From a virus, in the IMG/VR virus record IMGVR_UViG_3300031760_000017: DNA of 64,000 nt. One strand, 5' to 3'. The position numbers and the translations under genes are program-made. The notes under the pieces were generated by a model, which saw only the letters and a list, made by a program, of their open reading frames with translations, was not told the DNA's origin and did no database searches. Below are positions 263-28,210 of this stretch, in pieces; the first letter of the stretch is position 1; each line of letters starts with the position of its first letter.

Positions 263-388
263 AAGGCATATACAGCAAATTCTCTTTAAGAGATGTGTTG
301 GTTCAAATCCAACATTTGCCGCATGGGCAGATTGGCGCAATGGTTGACGCAAGTGACTCGTAATCACTCTATCTTATTAATATGCCTT
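263..388 (+). ncRNA. circularly permuted tRNA-like RNA (T-arm and 3' acceptor strand lie upstream of 5' acceptor strand, D-arm and anticodon-like arm); Y-RNA/YrlA-like mimic or permuted tRNA-Thr(CGU)
   Basis: Terminal stem AAGGCATAT (263-271) / ATATGCCTT (380-388). T-arm GTTGG-TTCAAAT-CCAAC (297-313). ATTTGCC (314-320) pairs with GGCAGAT (326-332). Then come U8, a D-arm GCGC/AATGGTTGA/CGC containing GG, and an arm AGTGA-CTCGTAA-TCACT (352-368). Hand-folded. Confidence 0.5.
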
Positions 389-1239: not shown

Positions 1240-1314
1240 TAGACATATACAGCAAATTTTTTCAAGAATAAGAAATAGACTTTTAATCTATAATTCTAAC
1301 TCAAAGTATGTCTA
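1240..1314 (+). ncRNA. small structured RNA, paralog of the terminal stem and 5' motif of the 263-388 element
   Basis: Stem TAGACATAT (1240-1248) / GTATGTCTA (1306-1314). It shares CATATACAGCAAATT with 267-281. Two stem positions differ from the first element by compensatory changes. An internal hairpin AGAAATAGA-CTTTTAA-TCTAT(AA)TTCT is present. No D-arm or T-arm, so it is not a tRNA. Confidence 0.35.
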
Positions 1315-1490: not shown

Positions 1491-3014
1491 ATGAATACTT
1501 TTCTTAATCAGATGGTAAGAGACAATAACATTACTCGTACAGAGAACGGTGGTGTAACTCGCAAGACAACAGAATCTAAGGTGCTTGATATGTTTGCGGT
1601 TGGCGGTGCTTATAGAAACCGTTCTGATGCAGATGTTATTCTTCTATTTAAGAACGCATTTGAGGAAAACCGTGAACTTGCTATGAAGTGTCTTTTCTAT
1701 CTTCGTGATGTTCGTGGTGGACAGGGTGAAAGACGTTTCTTCAGAACAGCTTTCCGCTGGCTTTGCGATAAGCATCCAGAAGTAGCAAAGAGAAATCTTA
1801 ATAATGTAAGTGAGTATGGTCGATGGGATGATCTTATTTATGTAGCTGAAGACACTAAGTGCCAGACTGCCGCATTTAATATCATTAAGCATCAGCTTGC
1901 TCTTGATGTTCAGTGCAAGACTCCATCTCTGCTTGCTAAGTGGCTGCCTTCTCAGAATGCTTCTAATAAAGATACTAAGCGTCTTGGTCATGTGCTTGCA
2001 AATTATCTTCATATGACAAACAAGGAATATCGTAAGACTCTTTCAGTACTGCGTGAGCGCATCAACGTTCTTGAACGCCTGATGAGTGCAAACCGTTGGG
2101 ATGAAATCGAGTTTGATAAGATTCCTTCAAGAGCTGGTATTATTTATCGTAATGCATTTGCTCGTCGCGACATTCTTGCCAAGAGATATGAAGCATTTGC
2201 TAAGAGTTCAGAAACCAAGGTAAATGCAGAAGCTCTGTACCCGCATGATATTGCACATAGAGCTTTTGATTATGGAATGAAGCGAGCTGACATTAATGCT
2301 CCTGAGCGTCTCATGCTTCAGAAGTATTGGGATAACCTTAAGGATTTCTATAATGGAAGAGAAGAGAATGGCATTGCGGTAGTTGATGTTTCTGGTTCTA
2401 TGAGTGGTATTCCTATGGAAGCCGCAGTTTCTATGGGAGCCTATATCGCAGATAAGGCTCACGGACCATTTGCTAATCACTTTATTACTTTCTCAGCTAA
2501 CCCTGAGCTAGTAAGATTTGAAGGTGTTGACATTGTTGATAAGTTCAATCGTTGTGTAAAGGCAAATTGGGGTATGAATACTAACGTTGCGGCGGTATTT
2601 GATATGCTTCTAAATACAGCTAAGAAGAAGCATGTAAAGGTTGAAGATATGCCTACTCGAATTTATATCTTCTCAGATATGGAATTTGATAAGTGCATGA
2701 CTCTTGATCCTAATTACCATGATGAATGGGGTTGGGGTTGGCATTCATGCAAGCATCCTTCTTCAACTAAGGAAGTAAATTCTGACCTTGAGAAGATCAA
2801 GAGAAAGTGGAGTGCTGCTGGTTATCAGATGCCTTCTGTAATCTTCTGGAATCTCAACGCTAGAAATAATCGTATTCCTGCTATCGGCGATGGTTTCAGT
2901 TATGTGAGTGGATTCTCTCCTTCCATGATTGATTCTATCCTTAGCGGTAAGGACGGTTATGACCTCATGCTTGATAAGCTCATGTCTAAGCGTTATGCGG
3001 CGGTTGTTGCATAA
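1491..3014 (+). CDS. Ro60-like protein: helical DUF2828/TROVE-like N-terminal region plus C-terminal vWA domain
   Basis: ATG at 1491 follows AAAGGAG; the track's 1464 start is an upstream TTG. N-terminal TENGGV...LDMFAVGGAYR. vWA MIDAS motif VVDVSGSM (DxSxS). FSDMEFD and C-terminal GFSPSMIDSIL parallel Ro60/Rsr features as I recall them. TAG-free and G+C-richer than neighbours. Confidence 0.55.
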   Translation: MNTFLNQMVRDNNITRTENGGVTRKTTESKVLDMFAVGGAYRNRSDADVILLFKNAFEENRELAMKCLFYLRDVRGGQGERRFFRTAFRWLCDKHPEVAKRNLNNVSEYGRWDDLIYVAEDTKCQTAAFNIIKHQLALDVQCKTPSLLAKWLPSQNASNKDTKRLGHVLANYLHMTNKEYRKTLSVLRERINVLERLMSANRWDEIEFDKIPSRAGIIYRNAFARRDILAKRYEAFAKSSETKVNAEALYPHDIAHRAFDYGMKRADINAPERLMLQKYWDNLKDFYNGREENGIAVVDVSGSMSGIPMEAAVSMGAYIADKAHGPFANHFITFSANPELVRFEGVDIVDKFNRCVKANWGMNTNVAAVFDMLLNTAKKKHVKVEDMPTRIYIFSDMEFDKCMTLDPNYHDEWGWGWHSCKHPSSTKEVNSDLEKIKRKWSAAGYQMPSVIFWNLNARNNRIPAIGDGFSYVSGFSPSMIDSILSGKDGYDLMLDKLMSKRYAAVVA

Positions 3015-3026
3015 CTTCTATATATA

Positions 3027-3059
3027 AGGCACGCAGAAATGCGTGCCTTTCTTTTTTTT
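3027..3059 (+). terminator. intrinsic terminator
   Basis: Hairpin AAGGCACGC-agaaat-GCGTGCCTT followed by a T-run. Confidence 0.75.
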
Positions 3060-3101
3060 ATATAAAGAAAAAATCTTAGAACCTGGTTAAATGGTTTTTT
3101 A

Positions 3102-3170
3102 AATGGCTCGGCACGCAGACACTCGTATCTCAGAAACGAAAAGCTGGTTTGGATTTTTTATTTTGCATTT
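3102..3170 (+). repeat. conserved ~68-nt element, copy A (second copy at 60203-60270)
   Basis: AATGGCTCGGCACGCAGACACTCGTA...TTTGGATTTTTTATTTTGCATTT aligns with copy B. There are scattered substitutions and one 1-nt indel. Confidence 0.6.
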
Positions 3171-3261
3171 CTTGGGCAGGAATAAATAAATTAATTTTTC
3201 TAATTTTAATATATAATTAGTGAAAAAATAATTTTTAGCAGGAGGAGCATTATAAAAAACT

Positions 3262-3747
3262 ATGGCAGTATTATTAGAACATTATTCTTTATCTGAAATT
3301 TTTATGTTTACTGTCCTTTTAGCTTTAGCTATAAAAAGTTTAGTATCTTTTTTTGATTGGGCCTATACTTATCTTAAAAAATTCTTTAACAAAGAATATA
3401 AAGAGACTGATGAAAAAAAGGACTTAGAAAAAAGATTACAACATGGCAGCTGGGTTATGACAACTTTACAAACAAATCAAGATATAACTGATCAATATTT
3501 AAAAGAGCTATCTGCAAAGATAGATATGTTAATAGATTCAGATAAAGATGCTATAAAATCTTACATAACAAGCAAGCATCATTACTTTTGTTATTAGGTT
3601 GGATGGATTGATGATTTTAGTTTAGATTGTTTAGAAAAACGTTATTTGCATTATGCAAAAGAAGGAGGAAACTCTTTTATTGAAGGTTTTATGAATGATT
3701 TAAGAAATTTACCAAAAAAACCGCCAACAAATAGTGATAAACATTAA
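3262..3747 (+). CDS. hypothetical membrane protein (N-terminal TM helix), 161 aa with TAG=Gln
   Basis: GGAGGAG RBS. Track ORF 3262-3597 continues in frame through TAG (3598-3600) to TAA at 3745-3747. Confidence 0.55.
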
Positions 3748-3778
3748 AAAATAAAAAGAGATAAAAGGAGTGTTATAA

Positions 3779-5752
3779 GTGGCTTATTTATCAGGTTTAT
3801 ATCCCCCAGTTATTCCAGATGGGTATCCAGCAATGTTACAATAGGGGGAAACAATAGATTCTAAAAAATATTATAAAATATATTTCTCAATACCCAAATT
3901 AAATTCAATTAATAGCATAGATTTAAGATTTATGCAAATATCAATTAGAAAACAATCTACAAATATTTCTGTTTTAGATAAAACTAAATATTTTTCTGAA
4001 ATATTATTAACAGAAGGTTTTTTAGATAATACTAAATCATCAAATGATTATAATTATTATATATTAGTTCCATTAACTGTTTTTGAAAATAATAAGCTTA
4101 ATATAAATTAGTTATATAAAATTCAATTAAGATTTTGTGCAAAAAATTCTAGTATTCAAGAACCAACTTCTTATAGCGGTTCTGCGCTCTCTGTTTGGTT
4201 AAATACATATAATAATAGATTTTCATAGTGGTCAAGAGTTAGCTTGATAAAAGTAATATCAAAACCTACTTTAAATATAAATGGATTAAATGCTGCTTCT
4301 AACTCTCGAATTACTACATCTTTATTTGAAGTTATTGGCTTATTAAGTTTTACTAATTCATCTGAAAGTGAAATTCTAAAAAGTTATCAAATATTTTTAA
4401 AAGATGCTAGTAAAAAAATAATTTTACATCAATCTGATATTATTTATTCAAATAATCTTAATAATCCTAATTAGATTAATTATGCTATTCCATATGAAAT
4501 GTCAGATAGATTAAATTATTATATTACTATACATTATACTACTAATAATCTATATGAAAATACTGTTAATTATCAAATTAATACATATTTTACAAACACT
4601 ACTATAAATCCTCTAAATGTATTTTCTGCAATAGGGAATGAAGAAGATGGATATATAAAACTTACTATAAAAAGCAAGGGCGTTAATTTATATTCTAACA
4701 ATAATATAAAACCATTAGAATTAATTATTAAAAGATCTTCTTCAAAAACTAATTTTACTATATGGGAAGATTGGAAGATTTTTTCTTATACTGAAAAGTA
4801 TATAGATAAATAGTTTTATGATATGACAATAGAAAGCGGAATTTGGTACAAATATGGCTTGCAAATGCGCGGGACTGATTCAAATGGGCGTATAGTAAGA
4901 ACTAATATGCAGTCAATGAACAAACCTGCAATGTGTATTTTTGACAATATGTATTTAACAACAAAAGATAAACAACTAAAAATAAAATTTAACCCCGCAA
5001 TTAGCCAATTAAAATATAATGTATTAGAATCTCAACAAAATACTTTAGGAAGTCAATTTCCATATATTACTAGAAATGGAAATAATTATTATAGAACTTT
5101 TTCTATTGGCGGAATTATATCTGCTTTATCTGAAATTTTACATGAAGATAACTTATATATTTAGACAAGTTTTGAAACTAAAAACTATTGGGAAAAACCT
5201 TATTCTGTTGCGGGAGTTCTTAATAAAAAAGATATGTGGGGCGCTCCTTAGGAAGATATAGATTATAAGAAAAATGGTAATTCTGCAATTATCTTAGAAG
5301 GAGATCTTAATCAAAATACTGAATCAATTTTTGATAGTGTAGGTTTAAATGAGGATGATAATTTAATTCATAATACATAGATTGCGGCAAGCAATAATAC
5401 TTAGATGTTTTCTACAAAAAATAAAAGATTATTTGCTACAGATTCAGAAATTTATAATTAGCAATAGGAATTATATGAAGAATATAATTCAGAACATGGT
5501 ATAAATAAATATCAAGATTTTATTTATGAAAGAGAATTTAGAAAATTAGTTTTTGATTTTTTAAATTCAAATGAAATTAAATTATTCCGTTCAACACAAG
5601 AAGGTAATATCTTAATCAGATTAATTGGAATAAATTTTGAACCAGTTGAAGGAACAAATAGATTAGTTTATTCATTTTCCGCAACCGCAGTTGAAATAGG
5701 GGAAGATACTATTAGTAATTATAAAAAATATAATATTTTAAAGGAGGATTAA
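3779..5752 (+). CDS. tail/baseplate structural protein, 657 aa with TAG=Gln
   Basis: GTG start 8 nt after AAAGGAG. Track ORFs 4244, 4499 and 4823 share its frame. Hand translation shows only TAG interruptions and ends at TAA 5750-5752. Confidence 0.6.
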
Positions 5753-5755
5753 TAT

Positions 5756-7672
5756 ATGAAACATAATTTTCCATATTTACAAGATTCCTCTTTTTTAAAA
5801 TAGTTTGATTAGTTACAATTAAAAGAAAAATTCGTTAAAATTATTGTTTTAAATTTTAAAGAATAGCCAATAGCAGAAATACAAGGGCGTGTAACTGGCG
5901 GCAGTATAAATGTAGATGGATCTTCTAGTATGCGGCGAACCGCAAATCTGTCTGCTATTGTTAAATAGTAGGATTATAATATTTTAGATGTAAGAAATTT
6001 ATTATCAATTAATAAGAAAATAGAAATATTAATTGGCTTTACAAATTTAACTAATAAATATTCTGACTTTCCAATTATTTGGTTCCCTGAGGGAGTATAT
6101 TTAATTTTTTCGCCAAATATTACTCAAAGTGAGACTGGAATTAATATCTCTTTAACTTTAAGGGATAAAATGACGTTATTGAATGGAGAATGCGGCGGTT
6201 CATTTCCCGCATCAGTTACTTTTCATTAGATTGAAGATATTGATGAAAATGGAAATGTAATTATTTCTAATCCAACTATATATCAAATTATTGTTGAATT
6301 AGTAAATCATTTTGGTGAAATCCCGCTGGATAAAATTATTATAAGTGATGTTGACACTAGAATTAAACAAACAGTTCAATGGATTGGTTCTTACCCAGTT
6401 TATTTTGCTAAACATAATAATGAGTTACAAGGTTAGTTTTCTACTAATTATTTTTAGCTCAGACAAACTTTTTCAGATAATGAAATCAAAACATATAATT
6501 ATGGAGATGCTGTTGGATATGTATTAACCGATTTTATTTATCCTGGTGAATTAATAGGAAATGCTGGAGAAAATGTTGTTACTATTTTAGATAAAATAAA
6601 AAATTTACTTGGTAATTTTGAATATTTTTTTGATACAGAAGGTAATTTTCATTTTCAAGAAGTTAAAAATTATCTAAATACAACTTATCCTACAACTTTA
6701 GAAAAAGATCGAGGAAATTTAGATAATTATCTAGTAGACTATGTTGATGGCGCATCTGTATATAGTTTTGAAGATAACAAAATTATTTCATCTATTTCAG
6801 TAGCCCCTTCTTATGAACAAATTAAAAATGATTTTATTGTGTGGGGTAAAAGAACTGAATTAACTGGTGCGGAAGTTCCAATAAGGTATCATTTAGCTAT
6901 TGATAAATGTCCACGAAACAATATATTGCATCAAGGTTTTTATGAATATGTTGATCCATAGGATGATTTAACTAAATATACAAAAAAAGTAATTACTGGA
7001 CAAAACTCAATTAATATTACTTCAAGAGATTATAGAACTGAATTATATTTACAAGGAGTTGAATCTGAAAATACAGCTACCGCAAGTAATTATTATTTTA
7101 TTGAATTAAAGAATTAGTGGCCGAAAATTTATAATATAAAATAGGGAACTTTTTTAGAAGAGTCTTTTGATAATTTAGATTATTTTTTAGATATTATAGA
7201 TACTTCCGCATAGATAGGAAAATTTAGTGTTTAGAATATTGGAAGACGGACAGTAGTTATAAACGATGATTCTATTAATTGTATTTTTGAACCATAGTAT
7301 CCAGAAGTTGTTTTTATAAAAACAGTGGATCAAGATGATCAAGAGTCAAATCCTATAAGAATTGAATGTGAAAATAAAAAAATAGATTATACACAGATAA
7401 AACCAGAAATGTTTAATTTTCTTTTTCAAGGAAATCCTTATAAGTCTGCCTATGAAGAAATAAGGACAGAATTATATCAATATACAACATATAATGAACA
7501 AATAAATTTATCTATTTTACCAATTTATTATTTTGAACCAAATACAAGAATTACTGTAAAGAACAATTAGATTGGGATAGGTGGAGATTATATGATTAAC
7601 AGTTTTTCAATACCTCTTGATATAAATGGCATAATGAATTTAACTTGTATAAAAACATTAGAAAGGATATAA
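5756..7672 (+). CDS. tail/baseplate structural protein, 638 aa with TAG=Gln
   Basis: ATG 5756 is preceded by AAGGAGG. It is in frame with track ORF 7325-7570. Contains QGRVTGGSINVDGSSSMRRTANLS, a phage minor-tail-like motif. Only TAG interrupts the frame, and TAA lies at 7670-7672. Confidence 0.6.
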
Positions 7673-7696
7673 GGTAAATGATTTTTCATTTACCTT
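7671..7696. terminator. bidirectional hairpin between convergent genes
   Basis: AAGGTAAATGA-tttt-TCATTTACCTT. It overlaps the stop codons of the plus-strand gene (7672) and the minus-strand integrase (7690). Confidence 0.55.
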
Positions 7697-8703
7697 ATAT
7701 ATTTTTGATGATCTTGTTTAACTTTTTCATTTGAAACATGTGCATAATGTAAAGTAGTTTCAAGCTAAGAATGTCCTAATACACTTTGAATAGATTCAAT
7801 TGGCATGCCTCTGTTTATCGCAGTTGTTGCCATAGTATATCTAAAACGATGTGGAATAATATCTTCAACACCGCTATTCTAAGTTAATTGATGCAATCTT
7901 TTTCTAACTCCTGAAGTACTTAATCTATTATAAGGGAATCTTAAAGACACAAAAAGAGCTTCATTATTATCTTTTCTTTCATTTATATAGTTTTTTATAC
8001 TAACTACAGTTTTTGCATCTATATAAACAGTTCTCCATTTTCCACCTTTTCCGCAAACAATAATTTCCCTCTTATTTAAATCAACATCTTTAATATTTAA
8101 ACCTACACATTCAGAAATTCTAATACCTGATGAAATTAGTAAATCTACAATAGCAATATCTCTATTTGTTTTACAAGCTCTTCTTATCTATTCTATATCT
8201 ATATCAGTGTACTATTGCCTTGGTTTTACATTAGACTTCTATCTTCTTATTCTTACTGAAGGATCTTTCTAAATATACTCTTCTTCATATAGCCATTTAA
8301 AAAAAGATCGTATAATACTTTTTCTTTGATTTAATGTTTCAGTACTTAATGGTTTACCAGTTTTTTTATTTTTAGATATATATTGAATATATAAACGAAG
8401 ATGATTAACAGTTATTTTTTCTAAAGGTAAACTTAAATAGTTTAACATATCCTATAAACACATTTTATATTGTTCTTTACTTTTTTCTGACATTCTACCC
8501 TATTGCTCTTTTGCCGCCATATAAATATAATAAGCTTCTGGTAATTGATAATTTTCATCTTTTAAATCTACAAAATTTGGTGTGATATTATAATTAAGAG
8601 AATAAGTATTTAATATATTTTTAATTTTATCTATATCCTATCTTTTAAAAAACGGCTATATTTTTAAACAAAATCCTTCAACAAAAGATAAGTTTGAAGA
8701 CAT
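7690..8703 (-). CDS. tyrosine recombinase/integrase (XerC/D-like), 337 aa with TAG=Gln
   Basis: Hand translation gives ...SSGIRISE..., HRFRYTMATT, LGHS-TAG-LETTLHYAHV (catalytic R, HxxR, H and Y). About 10 in-frame TAGs, with no TAA/TGA until 7692-7690. Confidence 0.8.
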
Positions 8704-8734
8704 TAATTAATTCTCCTTTTTTTTAATATTAAAA

Positions 8735-8770
8735 AAAGGAGGACTATATTTAAATATATAGTCCTCCTTT
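8735..8770 (-). terminator. 15-bp perfect hairpin after the tail-fibre operon
   Basis: AAAGGAGGACTATAT-ttaaat-ATATAGTCCTCCTTT, flanked by A/T runs. Confidence 0.6.
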
Positions 8771-8912
8771 ACTCTTTATTTAATTTTATTTTAATTCCAT
8801 AAATAGATAACTTAAATAAAATACTATTTTATTTTTTATTTATTCACTATAATTTCATATCTTCTGTGCTTAATTAAAGTTTTTATTTAAGATCTCTAAA
8901 TGGGCGTTTAGT

Positions 8913-10181
8913 TTACTCACCTAAGATTGTGCCATCGACATACTCAAGACGTTTTACAACAAAATCACGTATCTGCAAAATGTTGTTGTCCGTCTTTCCG
9001 GGGATCGTAATAAAAGCCCCGTCTGCTGTTGTCTCTGCATAATCCTCGGCATAAAGATATGGCGGAATCTGGCTTATGAACTTGTCGAACTCTCCGAGAA
9101 TATTTCCGGCAGAAAGTACGGTTTCTCTAAGTTCCTGATACCTTGCTATTACATCGCTCTGGAAAAGATTCCAAATACGATAATGCAGGTAGTTGTCCTC
9201 TTGAAACTGCGTATATCCGTTATAATTCTCTTGGAAGATTGTGTTATAAGGACGCCATGTTACTTCTTCCTGTCGCACAAGTCCGGTCATTCCCCACGTA
9301 GAATCCAAATCGTACAAACCTGTGTACCACTGTTCTGCATCATACGTAAAAAATGTCTGATTCTTTGCGATCAGGTCAATGGCACATATAGCCCTTACGA
9401 ATATATGCATATCAATGAGCGATTGCAGGTCAATCTTTGAATCTATCCCGGCTATAAACTGCGCATCTGTTGAATTACATATAAACGCCAGTACGGAAGT
9501 CCAACTATCGGCAATGACTGTTGGCATTTCATCGTGAAGTTCATCAGACCATTTTCCATTCATTGTCGGCTGTCTGAAAAACATCGTGTTATCATCAGCA
9601 AGCCCATCTGTCTGAATAATGCAGTTTGTTTCCTCGTCAGAATCCACACCGTACATACCGTCTTTCGGTAAATTCCATGTATAAAGACCATAGTATACAC
9701 CGTTGTGGTAGACCTTGACCGGGAATCCATCAATCGCAAGATTGCTCTTTCTCAGCGTAGCAGGTAGGGATGCAAAATTACTCCTTGACCTGACTGCCTG
9801 TGACCAAAGACGGGCATTAACAATATTTCTTGCATGGCTGTGGTCTATCCAGTTTGCTTTAAGGACAAACTTATTTCTAGGTTTATCCCAATCTCTGAAA
9901 AGACGTTTGCTCTTTGATTTTCTTGCGCTGTCTGTAAAAAGATTTATCGTGTAATTTTTCTTTGGATAGTAGGCAGATGAATCTCCTTGTACTTTAGCTG
10001 TAGCGTAATCCGTGAATGATTCCGTTGCGCTCTTGTATGTTATCTTAATGTTGCTCTTGCCTTCTGTCTTTGTCGCATACAGTTCACCCTCGATGGACAC
10101 AACTGGAATATCACCGTCATTGGGTTCATATCCGCCTACGTTTACAATATTTCCATGATAATCATAAATATAAGCCATCAT
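8913..10181 (-). CDS. CotH-family (kinase-like) protein, probable tail-fibre or receptor-binding accessory
   Basis: Intact 422-aa ORF in the standard code. LKANWIDHSHARNIVNARLW and the following segments resemble CotH. G+C-richer and TAG-free. Confidence 0.6.
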   Translation of the reverse strand: MMAYIYDYHGNIVNVGGYEPNDGDIPVVSIEGELYATKTEGKSNIKITYKSATESFTDYATAKVQGDSSAYYPKKNYTINLFTDSARKSKSKRLFRDWDKPRNKFVLKANWIDHSHARNIVNARLWSQAVRSRSNFASLPATLRKSNLAIDGFPVKVYHNGVYYGLYTWNLPKDGMYGVDSDEETNCIIQTDGLADDNTMFFRQPTMNGKWSDELHDEMPTVIADSWTSVLAFICNSTDAQFIAGIDSKIDLQSLIDMHIFVRAICAIDLIAKNQTFFTYDAEQWYTGLYDLDSTWGMTGLVRQEEVTWRPYNTIFQENYNGYTQFQEDNYLHYRIWNLFQSDVIARYQELRETVLSAGNILGEFDKFISQIPPYLYAEDYAETTADGAFITIPGKTDNNILQIRDFVVKRLEYVDGTILGE

Positions 10182-27463: not shown

Positions 27464-28210
27464 ATGAGTACATATGTATTTTCAGATTTACACGCTCAAT
27501 ATAATCTTTGGAAGCAAATAAAAGATTATATTAAACCAGACGACATTGTATTTTGTCTTGGTGACTGTGTAGATAGAGGTCCAGTAGGACTTGAAATTTT
27601 ATATGAAGTAATGGAAACTCCTAATATTACTTTACTACGCGGAAATCACGAAGATTTTATTGCCACTATTGGCGAAAAGATTTTAAAATGTAAATCAGAA
27701 GAAGATGTATATTGGGAGTATCCAGATGAAATATATATATGGAAAGCTAATGGCGCTTCAAATACTATTGAAGCTTTTCAAAATTTAAGTAGAAAAGAAA
27801 AAGAAGAGTTAATAAATAAAATTAAAAAATTGCCCACTTGGGCAATATATGAAAACAAAGATAATAAATTTTATCTTTGCCATGCGGGAAGACAGCCGCA
27901 AACAACAGAACATTTAATTGAAGGACGTAGCGCAATTATTCCAATGAACAATTATATTTGGGATAGAAGTCATATTTCGGATATAGTGTGGCGAGGAGAA
28001 AAAAATGAATTTTGTATTCATGGGCATACTCCAGTATTAGCCATAGACCATTATATAAATAGATATGAATTTTTACCTAAAAAAACAGATGAAATATATA
28101 TTTATTGTAATGGTCATAAAATAGATATAGACTTAGGTTCTTTTATCACTCATCGCGTATGTCTATTTAATCTTGATACTTTTAAACCAATTTATTTTGA
28201 AGATAAATAA
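27464..28210 (+). CDS. PPP-family Ser/Thr phosphatase / metallophosphoesterase
   Basis: Motifs SDLHA, GDCVDRGP and RGNHE. AAGGAGG RBS. Confidence 0.8.
   Translation: MSTYVFSDLHAQYNLWKQIKDYIKPDDIVFCLGDCVDRGPVGLEILYEVMETPNITLLRGNHEDFIATIGEKILKCKSEEDVYWEYPDEIYIWKANGASNTIEAFQNLSRKEKEELINKIKKLPTWAIYENKDNKFYLCHAGRQPQTTEHLIEGRSAIIPMNNYIWDRSHISDIVWRGEKNEFCIHGHTPVLAIDHYINRYEFLPKKTDEIYIYCNGHKIDIDLGSFITHRVCLFNLDTFKPIYFEDK

Follow-up and report, generated by a model that had tools for sequence, protein, structure and literature searches.

Near the start of a 64,000-nt stretch of viral DNA (the window, by which we always mean the whole stretch) lie four tRNA genes on which ARAGORN and Rfam agree (Gln 396-468, Gly 949-1020, Arg 1162-1237, Cys 1324-1395), and the question raised by this locus is what fills the gap between the last two of them. 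An earlier note had read positions 1240-1314 as a second small RNA, built on the same terminal stem and 5' motif as a larger, tRNA-like element upstream. From the positions of the four tRNAs it follows that this second sequence, element 2, occupies the Arg-Cys spacer. On the + strand it runs from 1240 to 1314 as TAGACATAT, ACAGCAAATT, an interior and GTATGTCTA, followed by G1315. Its counterpart, element 1, runs from 263 to 388 (+ strand) as AAGGCATAT, ACAGCAAATT, an interior and ATATGCCTT, followed by G389. The features of the array that concern us here are:

263-389, + strand: element 1 including its trailing G, the large sibling of element 2, with closing helix and box as in element 2
1162-1237, + strand: tRNA-Arg(UCU), whose 3' end lies 2 nt before element 2
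1240-1248, + strand: first (5') arm of element 2's closing helix, UAGACAUAU, in which positions 2 and 3 are A and G throughout the family
1249-1256, + strand: conserved box ACAGCAAA, with CAGCAA invariant, directly 3' of the helix 5' strand and unpaired in the minimum free energy (MFE) fold
1271-1297, + strand: extended interior hairpin of element 2, with AGAA/UUCU outer pairs and an AA bulge, then a 5-bp stem
1275-1279 and 1287-1291, + strand: inner stem of element 2, AUAGA/UCUAU, closing the 7-nt loop CUUUUAA (1280-1286)
1306-1315, + strand: second (3') arm of element 2's closing helix, GUAUGUCUA, plus the unpaired conserved G1315; this G is found in at least 90% of copies
1316-1323, + strand: U-rich 3' trailer UUUUAAUU, reaching the 5' end of tRNA-Cys
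1324-1395, + strand: tRNA-Cys(GCA), directly 3' of element 2 and 9 nt after its end

No plausible open reading frame was found in element 2 or in the small-RNA array, neither ARAGORN nor Rfam RF00005 called a cloverleaf at 1240-1314, and Rfam scans of the window, at gathering thresholds as well as at E <= 10, assigned element 2 to no known family. RNAfold recovers the closing helix as expected together with a bulged hairpin, with an MFE of -9.4 kcal/mol that is not better than shuffled sequences (z = -1.4). Because this folding energy is unimpressive, the significance of element 2 rests on comparison across loci.

A first comparison is possible within the window itself. The 15-mer CATATACAGCAAATT occurs exactly twice in the 64 kb, at 267 and 1244, both times on the + strand, and both closing helices can be read in the sequence, so that the common start and complementary 3' strand claimed for the two elements are borne out. 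The two compensatory stem differences that had been pointed out are likewise present: pair 1 is A-U in element 1 and U-A in element 2, and pair 4 changes from G-C to A-U. Pair 9 is a third difference, A-U in the former and U.G in the latter. Downstream of each element come GTTTTAA(T) and a tRNA gene, that of tRNA-Gln (396) for element 1 and that of tRNA-Cys (1324) for element 2. The interior of element 1 comprises, in order, a V hairpin, a T arm, a loop-closed acceptor stem, a D arm and an extra anticodon-like arm (CUCGUAA), which is the YrlA order of modules plus an anticodon arm; two sub-threshold half-tRNA matches (274-321 and 326-387) were obtained for it in the Rfam scan. Its "anticodon" changes between close relatives, being CGU, UCU or UAU.

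The CAGCAA-box RNA family

To extend the comparison we fetched 80 related viral loci through the DUF2828/DUF7788 gene that lies downstream of element 2, at 50-98% protein identity. These loci hold 95 distinct copies of the element, often several per locus, upstream of the gene. The layout of the family is A, U or G followed by AG and 4-6 variable nucleotides; the motif RCAGCAA; 25-150 variable nucleotides; a complementary arm ending in CU and then U, A or C; and finally a G. The box as a whole reads ACAGCAA(A/U/C), and this architecture is seen hundreds of times in related phages; a minimal member, such as L240 167-214, has 50 nt. The bounds given in the earlier note enclose a real element but stop short of its end, since the conserved unit extends to the unpaired G1315.

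The proposal that selection acts on an RNA helix, to be tested by aligning homologous loci, was upheld. A closing helix of at least 7 bp is present at 124 of 157 (79%) distinct + strand RCAGCAA sites upstream of the homologous gene, as opposed to 15% after mononucleotide shuffling. This shuffle and the counts on the opposite strand are the usable controls; a swap-based dinucleotide shuffle gave 32%, but mixed poorly. Many copies have arm sequences in common, and arms borrowed from other copies are therefore not a valid null for the helix; a tally of G-U versus A-C pairs is likewise unusable, being biased by the way in which partners were chosen. We further aligned 77 distinct copies without gaps over the two arms, each 3' arm being picked by its complementarity to the 5' arm. 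Pairs 1-7 are thus paired by construction, and the diversity of pair types is the informative part of this set: pairs 2 (A-U) and 3 (G-C) are invariant, while seven of the nine pairs vary on both sides, pair 1 for instance being AU in 52 copies, UA in 15 and GC in 9. The closing helix measures 7-9 bp, and CAGCAA is invariant in these 77 copies as well as in the 37 aligned for the model described below (model columns C11-A16). Covariation of the helix is seen over about 100 to 390 distinct copies, and in the sub-family of element 2 both the closing helix and the anticodon-like stem covary. Conservation in relatives, on which the earlier reading depended, is thus found: where the Ro-like protein is 61-98% identical, the helix is kept through compensatory changes.

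The seeds of our covariance model (R1) were 37 short copies found in other loci, one half in bacterial-genome contigs; the window and its two close relatives, loci L001 and L034, were left out. When both strands of the 64-kb window were searched with this model, the top match was 1240-1315, over the full model length and with 34 bits (E = 8.5e-6, a rough value like all our Infernal E-values, the calibration having been shortened). The CAGCAA-box family has no entry in Rfam 15, and we found no account of it in the literature on DUF2828, DUF7788, "Ro-like" proteins, or YrlA and phage. A nucleotide search of the phage collection matched only tRNAs and short parts of the DUF2828 gene and yielded no near relative. 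Two candidates were set aside along the way. The variant box CATATAAAGCTAATG in loci L011-L021 proved to be coding sequence, and that clade is without an element within +/-4 kb; a 13-aa antisense peptide beside the proximal element in some relatives is not conserved, being absent in L008, for example.

The interior follows other rules. Element 2 had been described as having a bulged hairpin and no tRNA-like arms, which holds for the T and D arms, both absent, but not for the hairpin at 1275-1291, which has the form of an anticodon arm. In effect, it imitates the anticodon arm of tRNA-Lys(UUU), with equivalents of U33 and A37. In eight aligned relatives the CUUUUAA loop sits on different, compensating stems, with the stem paired in all and three of its five pairs compensatory. 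The interior is not conserved even between gene-proximal orthologues, and a CUUUUAA-type hairpin is absent from others of these, so that the anticodon-like hairpin is best described as a swappable module; the anticodon-arm look-alike of element 2 could be a passenger. A tally of 7-nt hairpin loops over the 389 distinct elements of all fetched loci is headed by T-loops (TTCGAAT and similar), followed by CUUUUAA (20 times, on 14 stems), CUGUUAA (Asn; 11 times, on 9 stems) and CUGUAAA (Tyr; 7 times). The commonest anticodon-like loops in the family are hence those of Lys UUU and Asn GUU, and then of Tyr GUA.

Linkage to a Ro-like gene and the fold of its product

Element 2 lies 176 nt upstream of the gene at 1491-3014 and on the same strand. 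This arrangement is recurrent. A scan of viral contigs for the 16-mer AAGACACATACAGCAA returned 129 sites, 88 of them with a closing helix, and a DUF2828 homologue is co-stranded at 51 of the 51 sites having one within the available locus. We also collected 72 bacterial and archaeal genome loci through the protein (32-78% identity), from Thermoactinomyces, Enterococcus and Mycolicibacterium isolates, a Nodosilinea assembly and metagenome-assembled genomes of many phyla. Here, all 71 model matches at E <= 0.01, found in 40 of the 72 loci, are on the strand of the gene, many within about 250 nt of it. With a second scanner the counts were 101 co-oriented versus 6 opposite in viral loci, and 76 versus 17 in genome loci. 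Within the flanks examined, 26 of the 80 viral and 32 of the 72 genome loci (about 40%) have no element; the pairing of element and gene may not be obligatory, or the RNAs may lie farther away.

Homologues of the protein are widespread, with at least 8,000 matches at E <= 1e-5 in a protein database search and, by tblastn, 698 cultured-phage records, including Felixounavirus, Listeria P100-like phages, mycobacteriophage cluster L and KVP40-like phages. Among cultured phages, Staphylococcus S-CoN_Ph12 has three elements just downstream of the gene, one of them annotated as a tiny ORF; Bacillus Thrax3 has five by the gene and Campylobacter CP81 two; Listeria LP-124 has two at E <= 0.01 and a weaker third (E 0.73); and in Mycobacterium Faith1 three elements follow a gene annotated "Ro-like RNA binding protein". 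In Escherichia phage Bas63 four elements, one of them YrlA-like, occupy gaps of the tRNA array after gp130 (L273 5715, 5882, 6337 and 6424; about 82072-82139, 82239-82297, 82694-82761 and 82781-82906 in the Bas63 record). The elements are tightly linked to, and co-oriented with, the Ro-like gene in phages of many bacterial phyla.

The gene and its surroundings in the window comprise:

1398-1426, + strand: sigma-70-like promoter of the Ro-like gene, TTGATT-17-TATAAT, a consensus match only, downstream of the RNA array
1491-3014, + strand: gene for the DUF2828+DUF7788 protein of 507 aa, phrog_850 "RNA-binding protein", with a Ro60-like fold
3026-3049, + strand: intrinsic-terminator-like hairpin after the Ro-like gene, from sequence

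In 32 homologues the Pfam TROVE profile (PF05731) was unmatched at E <= 5, the only matches being DUF2828, DUF7788 and a weak VWA_2, and a profile search of PDB sequences with the protein of the window retrieved no Ro60, only a vWA protein. We modelled its structure with AlphaFold from an alignment of 94 sequences, at moderate confidence (pLDDT 75, pTM 0.62); with the single sequence, the pLDDT was 45. In this predicted structure a ring of helical repeats is followed by a vWA domain, which is the fold of Ro60, and its best matches are three solved Ro60 structures:

1yvp, X. laevis Ro60: fold-comparison value 11.7
2nvo, D. radiodurans Rsr: 10.9
9l5y, Thermus phage phiLo Ro60: 10.8

With Foldseek over the full length, 9l5y ranks first (E 2e-4). 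On these structural matches the protein is thus of Ro60 architecture, though it fails the sequence definition of TROVE, and it is the presumed partner of the element RNAs. The same genome also encodes RNA-repair functions, namely an RNA ligase (33779-35017), a polynucleotide kinase (35646-36146) and a phosphoesterase (36146-36667). An RtcB-like ligase lies near the Ro-like gene in Listeria LP-124, and cluster L mycobacteriophages, too, have RNA ligase and Pnk (PMC13148394).

We consider it likely that 1240-1315 is the gene for a small non-coding RNA of about 75-85 nt, a member of a Y-RNA-like family that travels with Ro60-fold DUF2828/DUF7788 proteins.

Probable maturation, rival readings and possible role

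The position of the copies offers clues on how such an RNA might be made. Fifty of the 95 copies abut a tRNA gene, 35 ending 4-15 nt before one and 21 starting at most 10 nt after one, while 23 of 73 copies without a preceding tRNA have a -10 box 4-10 nt upstream (versus about 7 at control offsets). Around element 2 no dedicated promoter or terminator was found, and no terminator inside the tRNA/small-RNA array. Given the spacing of element 2, 2 nt behind tRNA-Arg and 9 nt ahead of tRNA-Cys, we infer that it is excised by tRNA-maturing enzymes. It would be transcribed within the tRNA-array transcript, its 5' end would be set by the 3' processing of tRNA-Arg, and its primary 3' end by RNase P cleavage at 1323/1324. 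We think it probable that tRNA-processing enzymes free the RNA from the array transcript and that the Ro-like protein binds it.

The same layout admits another interpretation, namely that the elements are passive, cis-acting spacers of tRNA operons, which insulate the tRNAs or guide RNase P, Z or E and have no life after cleavage. That half of the copies touch a tRNA gene, that the gap to the next tRNA is a narrow 4-15 nt and that element 2 is without a promoter or terminator of its own would all agree with it. We nevertheless regard it as improbable: elements track the DUF2828 gene also without a neighbouring tRNA (in Faith1, in S-CoN_Ph12, and in Enterococcus and Thermoactinomyces loci), roughly one in three copies without a preceding tRNA has its own -10-like box, and a spacer has no need of an invariant 6-nt single-stranded box or of YrlA-like T/AS/D modules.

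In an alternative scenario the element would be a cis-regulatory operator, the Ro-like protein binding the leader or trailer of its own mRNA and so autoregulating translation or stability. In many bacterial-genome loci the element does precede the start codon by 60-250 nt, on the strand of the gene. In the window, however, a tRNA gene and a separate promoter intervene between element 2 and the gene; elsewhere copies are also found downstream of the gene (Faith1, Bas63, a Staphylococcus phage, Mycolicibacterium, Saccharibacteria) or kilobases off in tRNA arrays, with two to five per locus. We hold this scenario to be less probable still, and protein binding would be required by it too, so that it overlaps with the main explanation.

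Could element 2 be a degenerate copy, derived from element 1 or from a tRNA-Lys gene, that has no function and was kept by chance? The 15 nt and the trailer GTTTTAA that it has in common with element 1, its AU-rich interior and its weak folding energy might suggest so, but relatives with 61-98% identity in the Ro-like protein keep the helix by compensation and the CUUUUAA hairpin on different stems, and a model made from other phyla recognises element 2, all of which renders this very unlikely. The least likely reading is that the elements act as DNA repeats rather than as RNA, whether as miniature mobile elements, as recombination sites or as boundaries of tRNA-shuffling cassettes, for although inverted repeats surround a variable cargo, several per genome and with the cargo differing between close relatives, and HNH or homing endonuclease genes occur in some arrays, the strand bias is strict (71/71, 51/51, 101 versus 6), the box is on one arm only, the arms covary freely with complementarity kept, the tRNA-like modules are ordered as in YrlA, and no target-site duplications were noticed, albeit with no systematic search. 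Regarding integron recombination sites in particular, whose attC core is RYYYAAC/GTTRRRY, the elements are unlike attC by eye, and the strand bias also argues against that type.

In our main reading, the Ro-like protein, whose gene begins 176 nt downstream, would dock on the helix base together with the CAGCAA box. The parallel is with Ro60, on which Y RNAs dock through a GGUCCGA or GNCGAA box. CAGCAA keeps a fixed distance from the invariant AG/CU pairs, which suggests that the protein gauges the length of the helix (about 9 bp) and recognises the unpaired box, much like the recognition of the Y RNA 5' strand by Ro60. The variable interior would then be the working (effector) end, shown to other factors; Y RNAs, similarly, act as a gate on Ro60 and link it to PNPase. 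From interiors made of tRNA pieces, and from the RNA ligase, polynucleotide kinase and phosphoesterase genes of the phage, we infer a particle that most likely acts on tRNA metabolism during infection. Our best guess as to its most likely role is tRNA surveillance, repair, or protection from host defences that target tRNAs.

In this context, we put forward a more specific and rather improbable proposal, that the Ro-like DUF2828 protein and the CAGCAA-box RNAs might constitute a phage counter-defence particle, the interchangeable interiors displaying tRNA parts (in element 2 the anticodon arm of tRNA-Lys(UUU)) as protected decoys, sensors or repair guides against PrrC-, PARIS/AriB- or retron-type nucleases, and the swapping of "anticodons" being the record of an arms race. 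The targets of the PARIS nuclease AriB are Lys UUU, Thr UGU and Asn GUU (PMC12409363). Hints in this direction are the frequent Lys, Asn and Tyr loops, the AriB targets among them, gp130 of Bas63, and the RNA ligase and kinase genes in the same genomes.

The Ro60/Y-RNA particle is a classic one that is still poorly understood. Its bacterial and phage versions have so far been charted only for TROVE-annotated proteins; a second protein family, with only Pfam domains of unknown function, can now be connected with the Ro60 fold as well as with cognate small RNAs of its own. Together, the CAGCAA-box RNAs and the Ro-like protein look like a second, phage-borne version of the particle. The family provides a searchable signature (AG...CU helix, CAGCAA box, trailing G) by which phage tRNA arrays can be re-annotated where they now show gaps or spurious tiny ORFs, and it sets a defined problem of RNA-protein recognition. 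Moreover, tractable phages such as Bas63 open the role of Ro/Y particles in infection to study, and a direct test becomes feasible of whether Y-like scaffolds with tRNA-mimicking modules have a part in the tRNA-centred arms race of phages with bacterial immunity.

Comparison with known systems

Phage tRNAs are known to neutralise anticodon nucleases, for example T5 tRNA-Lys/Thr/Asn against PARIS AriB (PMC11464382, PMC12409363). These tRNAs are products of phage tRNA arrays with anticodon arms that matter in conflict with the host, as the CAGCAA-box RNAs might be, and the commonest anticodon-like loops of the latter, Lys UUU and Asn GUU, are those of AriB targets. In contrast, the anti-nuclease tRNAs are complete and chargeable and replace the cleaved host tRNAs, while element 2 has an anticodon-arm look-alike only; it might at most be a decoy or sensor, which is speculative.

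A Ro60-like structure has been noted in a preprint for Bas63 gp130, a protein reported to counter the Ppl defence; Y RNAs were guessed to be among the "tRNA genes", and no RNA was identified (PMC11482910). In our data, gp130 of this phage (Escherichia phage JohannRWettstein) is 32% identical to the protein of the window and lies directly upstream of the tRNA array. The four CAGCAA-box elements, in contrast to the guess, sit in unannotated gaps of the array and not among the annotated tRNAs.

A further comparison is with the metazoan Y RNAs and Ro60 (PDB 1YVP). The two sets of RNAs have no sequence similarity, the metazoan ones having a helix with a bulged C and a 3' end of the Pol III/La type, whereas the ends of the CAGCAA-box RNAs would derive from tRNA processing or a sigma-70-type promoter.

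In Thermus phage phiLo, a phage Ro60 binds two upstream Y-like RNAs, Yrl1 and Yrl2, and a complex with PNPase has been shown (PMC12135203). The likeness to the present locus lies in a phage-encoded protein of Ro60 fold with two small Y-like RNAs just upstream, and the phiLo structure (9L5Y) is the best Foldseek match of our protein. However, phiRo60 is TROVE-annotated and its RNAs were chosen by a CGAA box; it is about 15% identical to the protein of the window.

Finally, known Y RNAs lie less than 4 kb from the Ro60 gene, co-stranded, in large/small pairs and with a short 5' box (PMC4201824, PMC12135203). For YrlA, Chen et al. (2014) selected genomes by TROVE-domain annotation and defined the RNA by a GNCGAA(N)G box, a terminal stem, V/T/AS/D arms, a position at most 4 kb from a co-stranded TROVE-annotated gene, and the presence of one large tRNA-like and one small RNA per species (PMC4201824). 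Element 2 is co-stranded near a Ro60-type gene and has a conserved end helix adjoining a conserved box, for which a recognition role may be supposed. It has no GNCGAA(N0-1)G box and no T arm, loop-closed acceptor stem or D arm, arms that occur in this order in large family members and are found in element 1 and many relatives. The Rfam YrlA model (RF02553) was unmatched in positions 1-1600 of the window even at E <= 10, while large members beside distant homologues of the gene give significant matches of 44.5, 36.8 and 32.2 bits (L271, L250 and L252), below the gathering score of 69. The comparison with a YrlA/YrlB pair, offered at first as an analogy, is therefore supported by the covarying helix, the co-oriented gene of Ro60 fold and these matches of 32-45 bits, even though neither element is an Rfam YrlA.

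Both systems, YrlA/YrlB with Rsr and the one described here, have their RNA genes within a few kb of a Ro60-fold gene and on its strand, at least two RNAs per locus (a large tRNA-like and a small hairpin-like one), paired 5' and 3' ends, and, close to the 5' end, a short box that is conserved. YrlA is, furthermore, a substrate of RNase P, the enzyme by which we propose that CAGCAA-box RNAs may be released. Given the order of the modules and the sub-threshold YrlA scores, the family is thus related in design to YrlA/YrlB. On the other hand, the CAGCAA-box RNAs use CAGCAA in place of GNCGAA(N)G, their partner is a DUF2828/DUF7788 and not a TROVE protein, they are set in phage tRNA arrays, and their interiors are far more varied, with anticodon-arm look-alikes that YrlA does not have. 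The CAGCAA-box family is probably related to YrlA/YrlB by descent, and it is distinct from it in box, protein partner and genomic setting.

Anticodon-like arm of element 1

Besides T-arm, loop-closed acceptor-stem and D-arm modules of the YrlA type (bacterial Y RNA), the first CAGCAA-box small-RNA element of the window (263-388) holds a full anticodon-like arm, AGUGA-CUNNNAA-UCACU. Counterparts of this element are found in two related phage loci (L001, 2563-2689; L034, 3143-3267), and outside the "anticodon" it is almost unchanged among the three. The "anticodon" itself reads CGU in the window, UCU in L001 and UAU in L034. The Ro-like proteins of L001 and L034 are 96-98% identical to that of the window, yet the "anticodons" of their elements differ.

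Spacers around the tRNA genes and the Ro-like gene

Two other spacers of the window tRNA array were noted:
470-948, + strand: non-coding gap of about 480 nt between tRNA-Gln and tRNA-Gly
1049-1156, + strand: tRNA-Gly/tRNA-Arg spacer with tRNA-like ends

The ends of the latter (GTGCGG...CCGCAC) are accompanied by a T-arm-like GTGAGG-TGTAAAT-CCTCAC and by some 50 additional nucleotides in the middle. Neither ARAGORN, including its intron option, nor Rfam called anything in 1049-1156, and its fold z-score is unremarkable. The longer gap displays GC-rich segments and a TATAAT-like box near 484-489; its sole match is a weak, sub-threshold one to the fluoride riboswitch (525-584, 16.6 bits), and 500-640 folds no more favourably than shuffled sequences do.

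In relatives without tRNA-Cys, the stretch that separates the Ro-like gene from its proximal element contains a conserved motif, CACTCCCTTTCTTTTGATTTT, and after it a hairpin (at about 3550 in locus L002, and also in L006, L008, L009, L010 and L070). Read on the opposite strand, the motif resembles a ribosome-binding site with a short, poorly conserved ORF.

CAGCAA-box elements in bacterial genomes and cultured phages

In an Acidimicrobiales MAG (L252), a YrlA-like CAGCAA-box element (6404-6511) is located directly 3' of the DUF2828 gene. About 300 nt beyond it we found a bacterial small SRP RNA gene (6803-6901, 68 bits), suggesting that some family members reside in a chromosomal rather than a phage context. 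A Saccharibacteria MAG contig (L271) has a 23-tRNA array (2653-4912) upstream of its DUF2828 gene and five tandem CAGCAA-box elements downstream (6430-6992). All five terminate in ...CU[A/U] GGUAC, a form specific to this clade in which the conserved G is extended in the 3' direction.

In cultured-phage records, small "hypothetical protein" CDSs are drawn over, or antisense to, such elements, and those listed here are probably mis-annotations:
L273, 6391-6665: Bas63 bas63_0137/0138
L277, 5519-5608: Staphylococcus S-CoN_Ph12 CDS0026
L278, 3861-3998: Campylobacter CP81 ORF140

No CAGCAA-box element was found within 4 kb on either side of the DUF2828 genes in one clade of viral loci (L011-L021 and L035; protein 65-66% identical). 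Either these genomes, of 80-150 kb, encode the RNAs at another site, or gene and element are not universally paired.

Amber codons and RNA-repair genes

Some genes of the window phage appear to be subject to amber recoding, since two ORFs of 657 and 639 codons (3779-7669, + strand) are visible only with TAG as a sense codon, 43 TAG codons being in their reading frame within 3001-9000. The Ro-like gene (1491-3014) contains no in-frame TAG. In many related loci, ARAGORN called tRNAs with a CUA anticodon ("Pyl").

The window also encodes an RNA-repair toolkit:
27464-28210, + strand: phosphatase
33779-35017, + strand: RNA ligase (phrog_968)
35646-36146, + strand: polynucleotide kinase (phrog_505)
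36146-36667, + strand: phosphoesterase (phrog_547)

These genes are similar to the Pnk/Rnl tRNA-repair set of T4.
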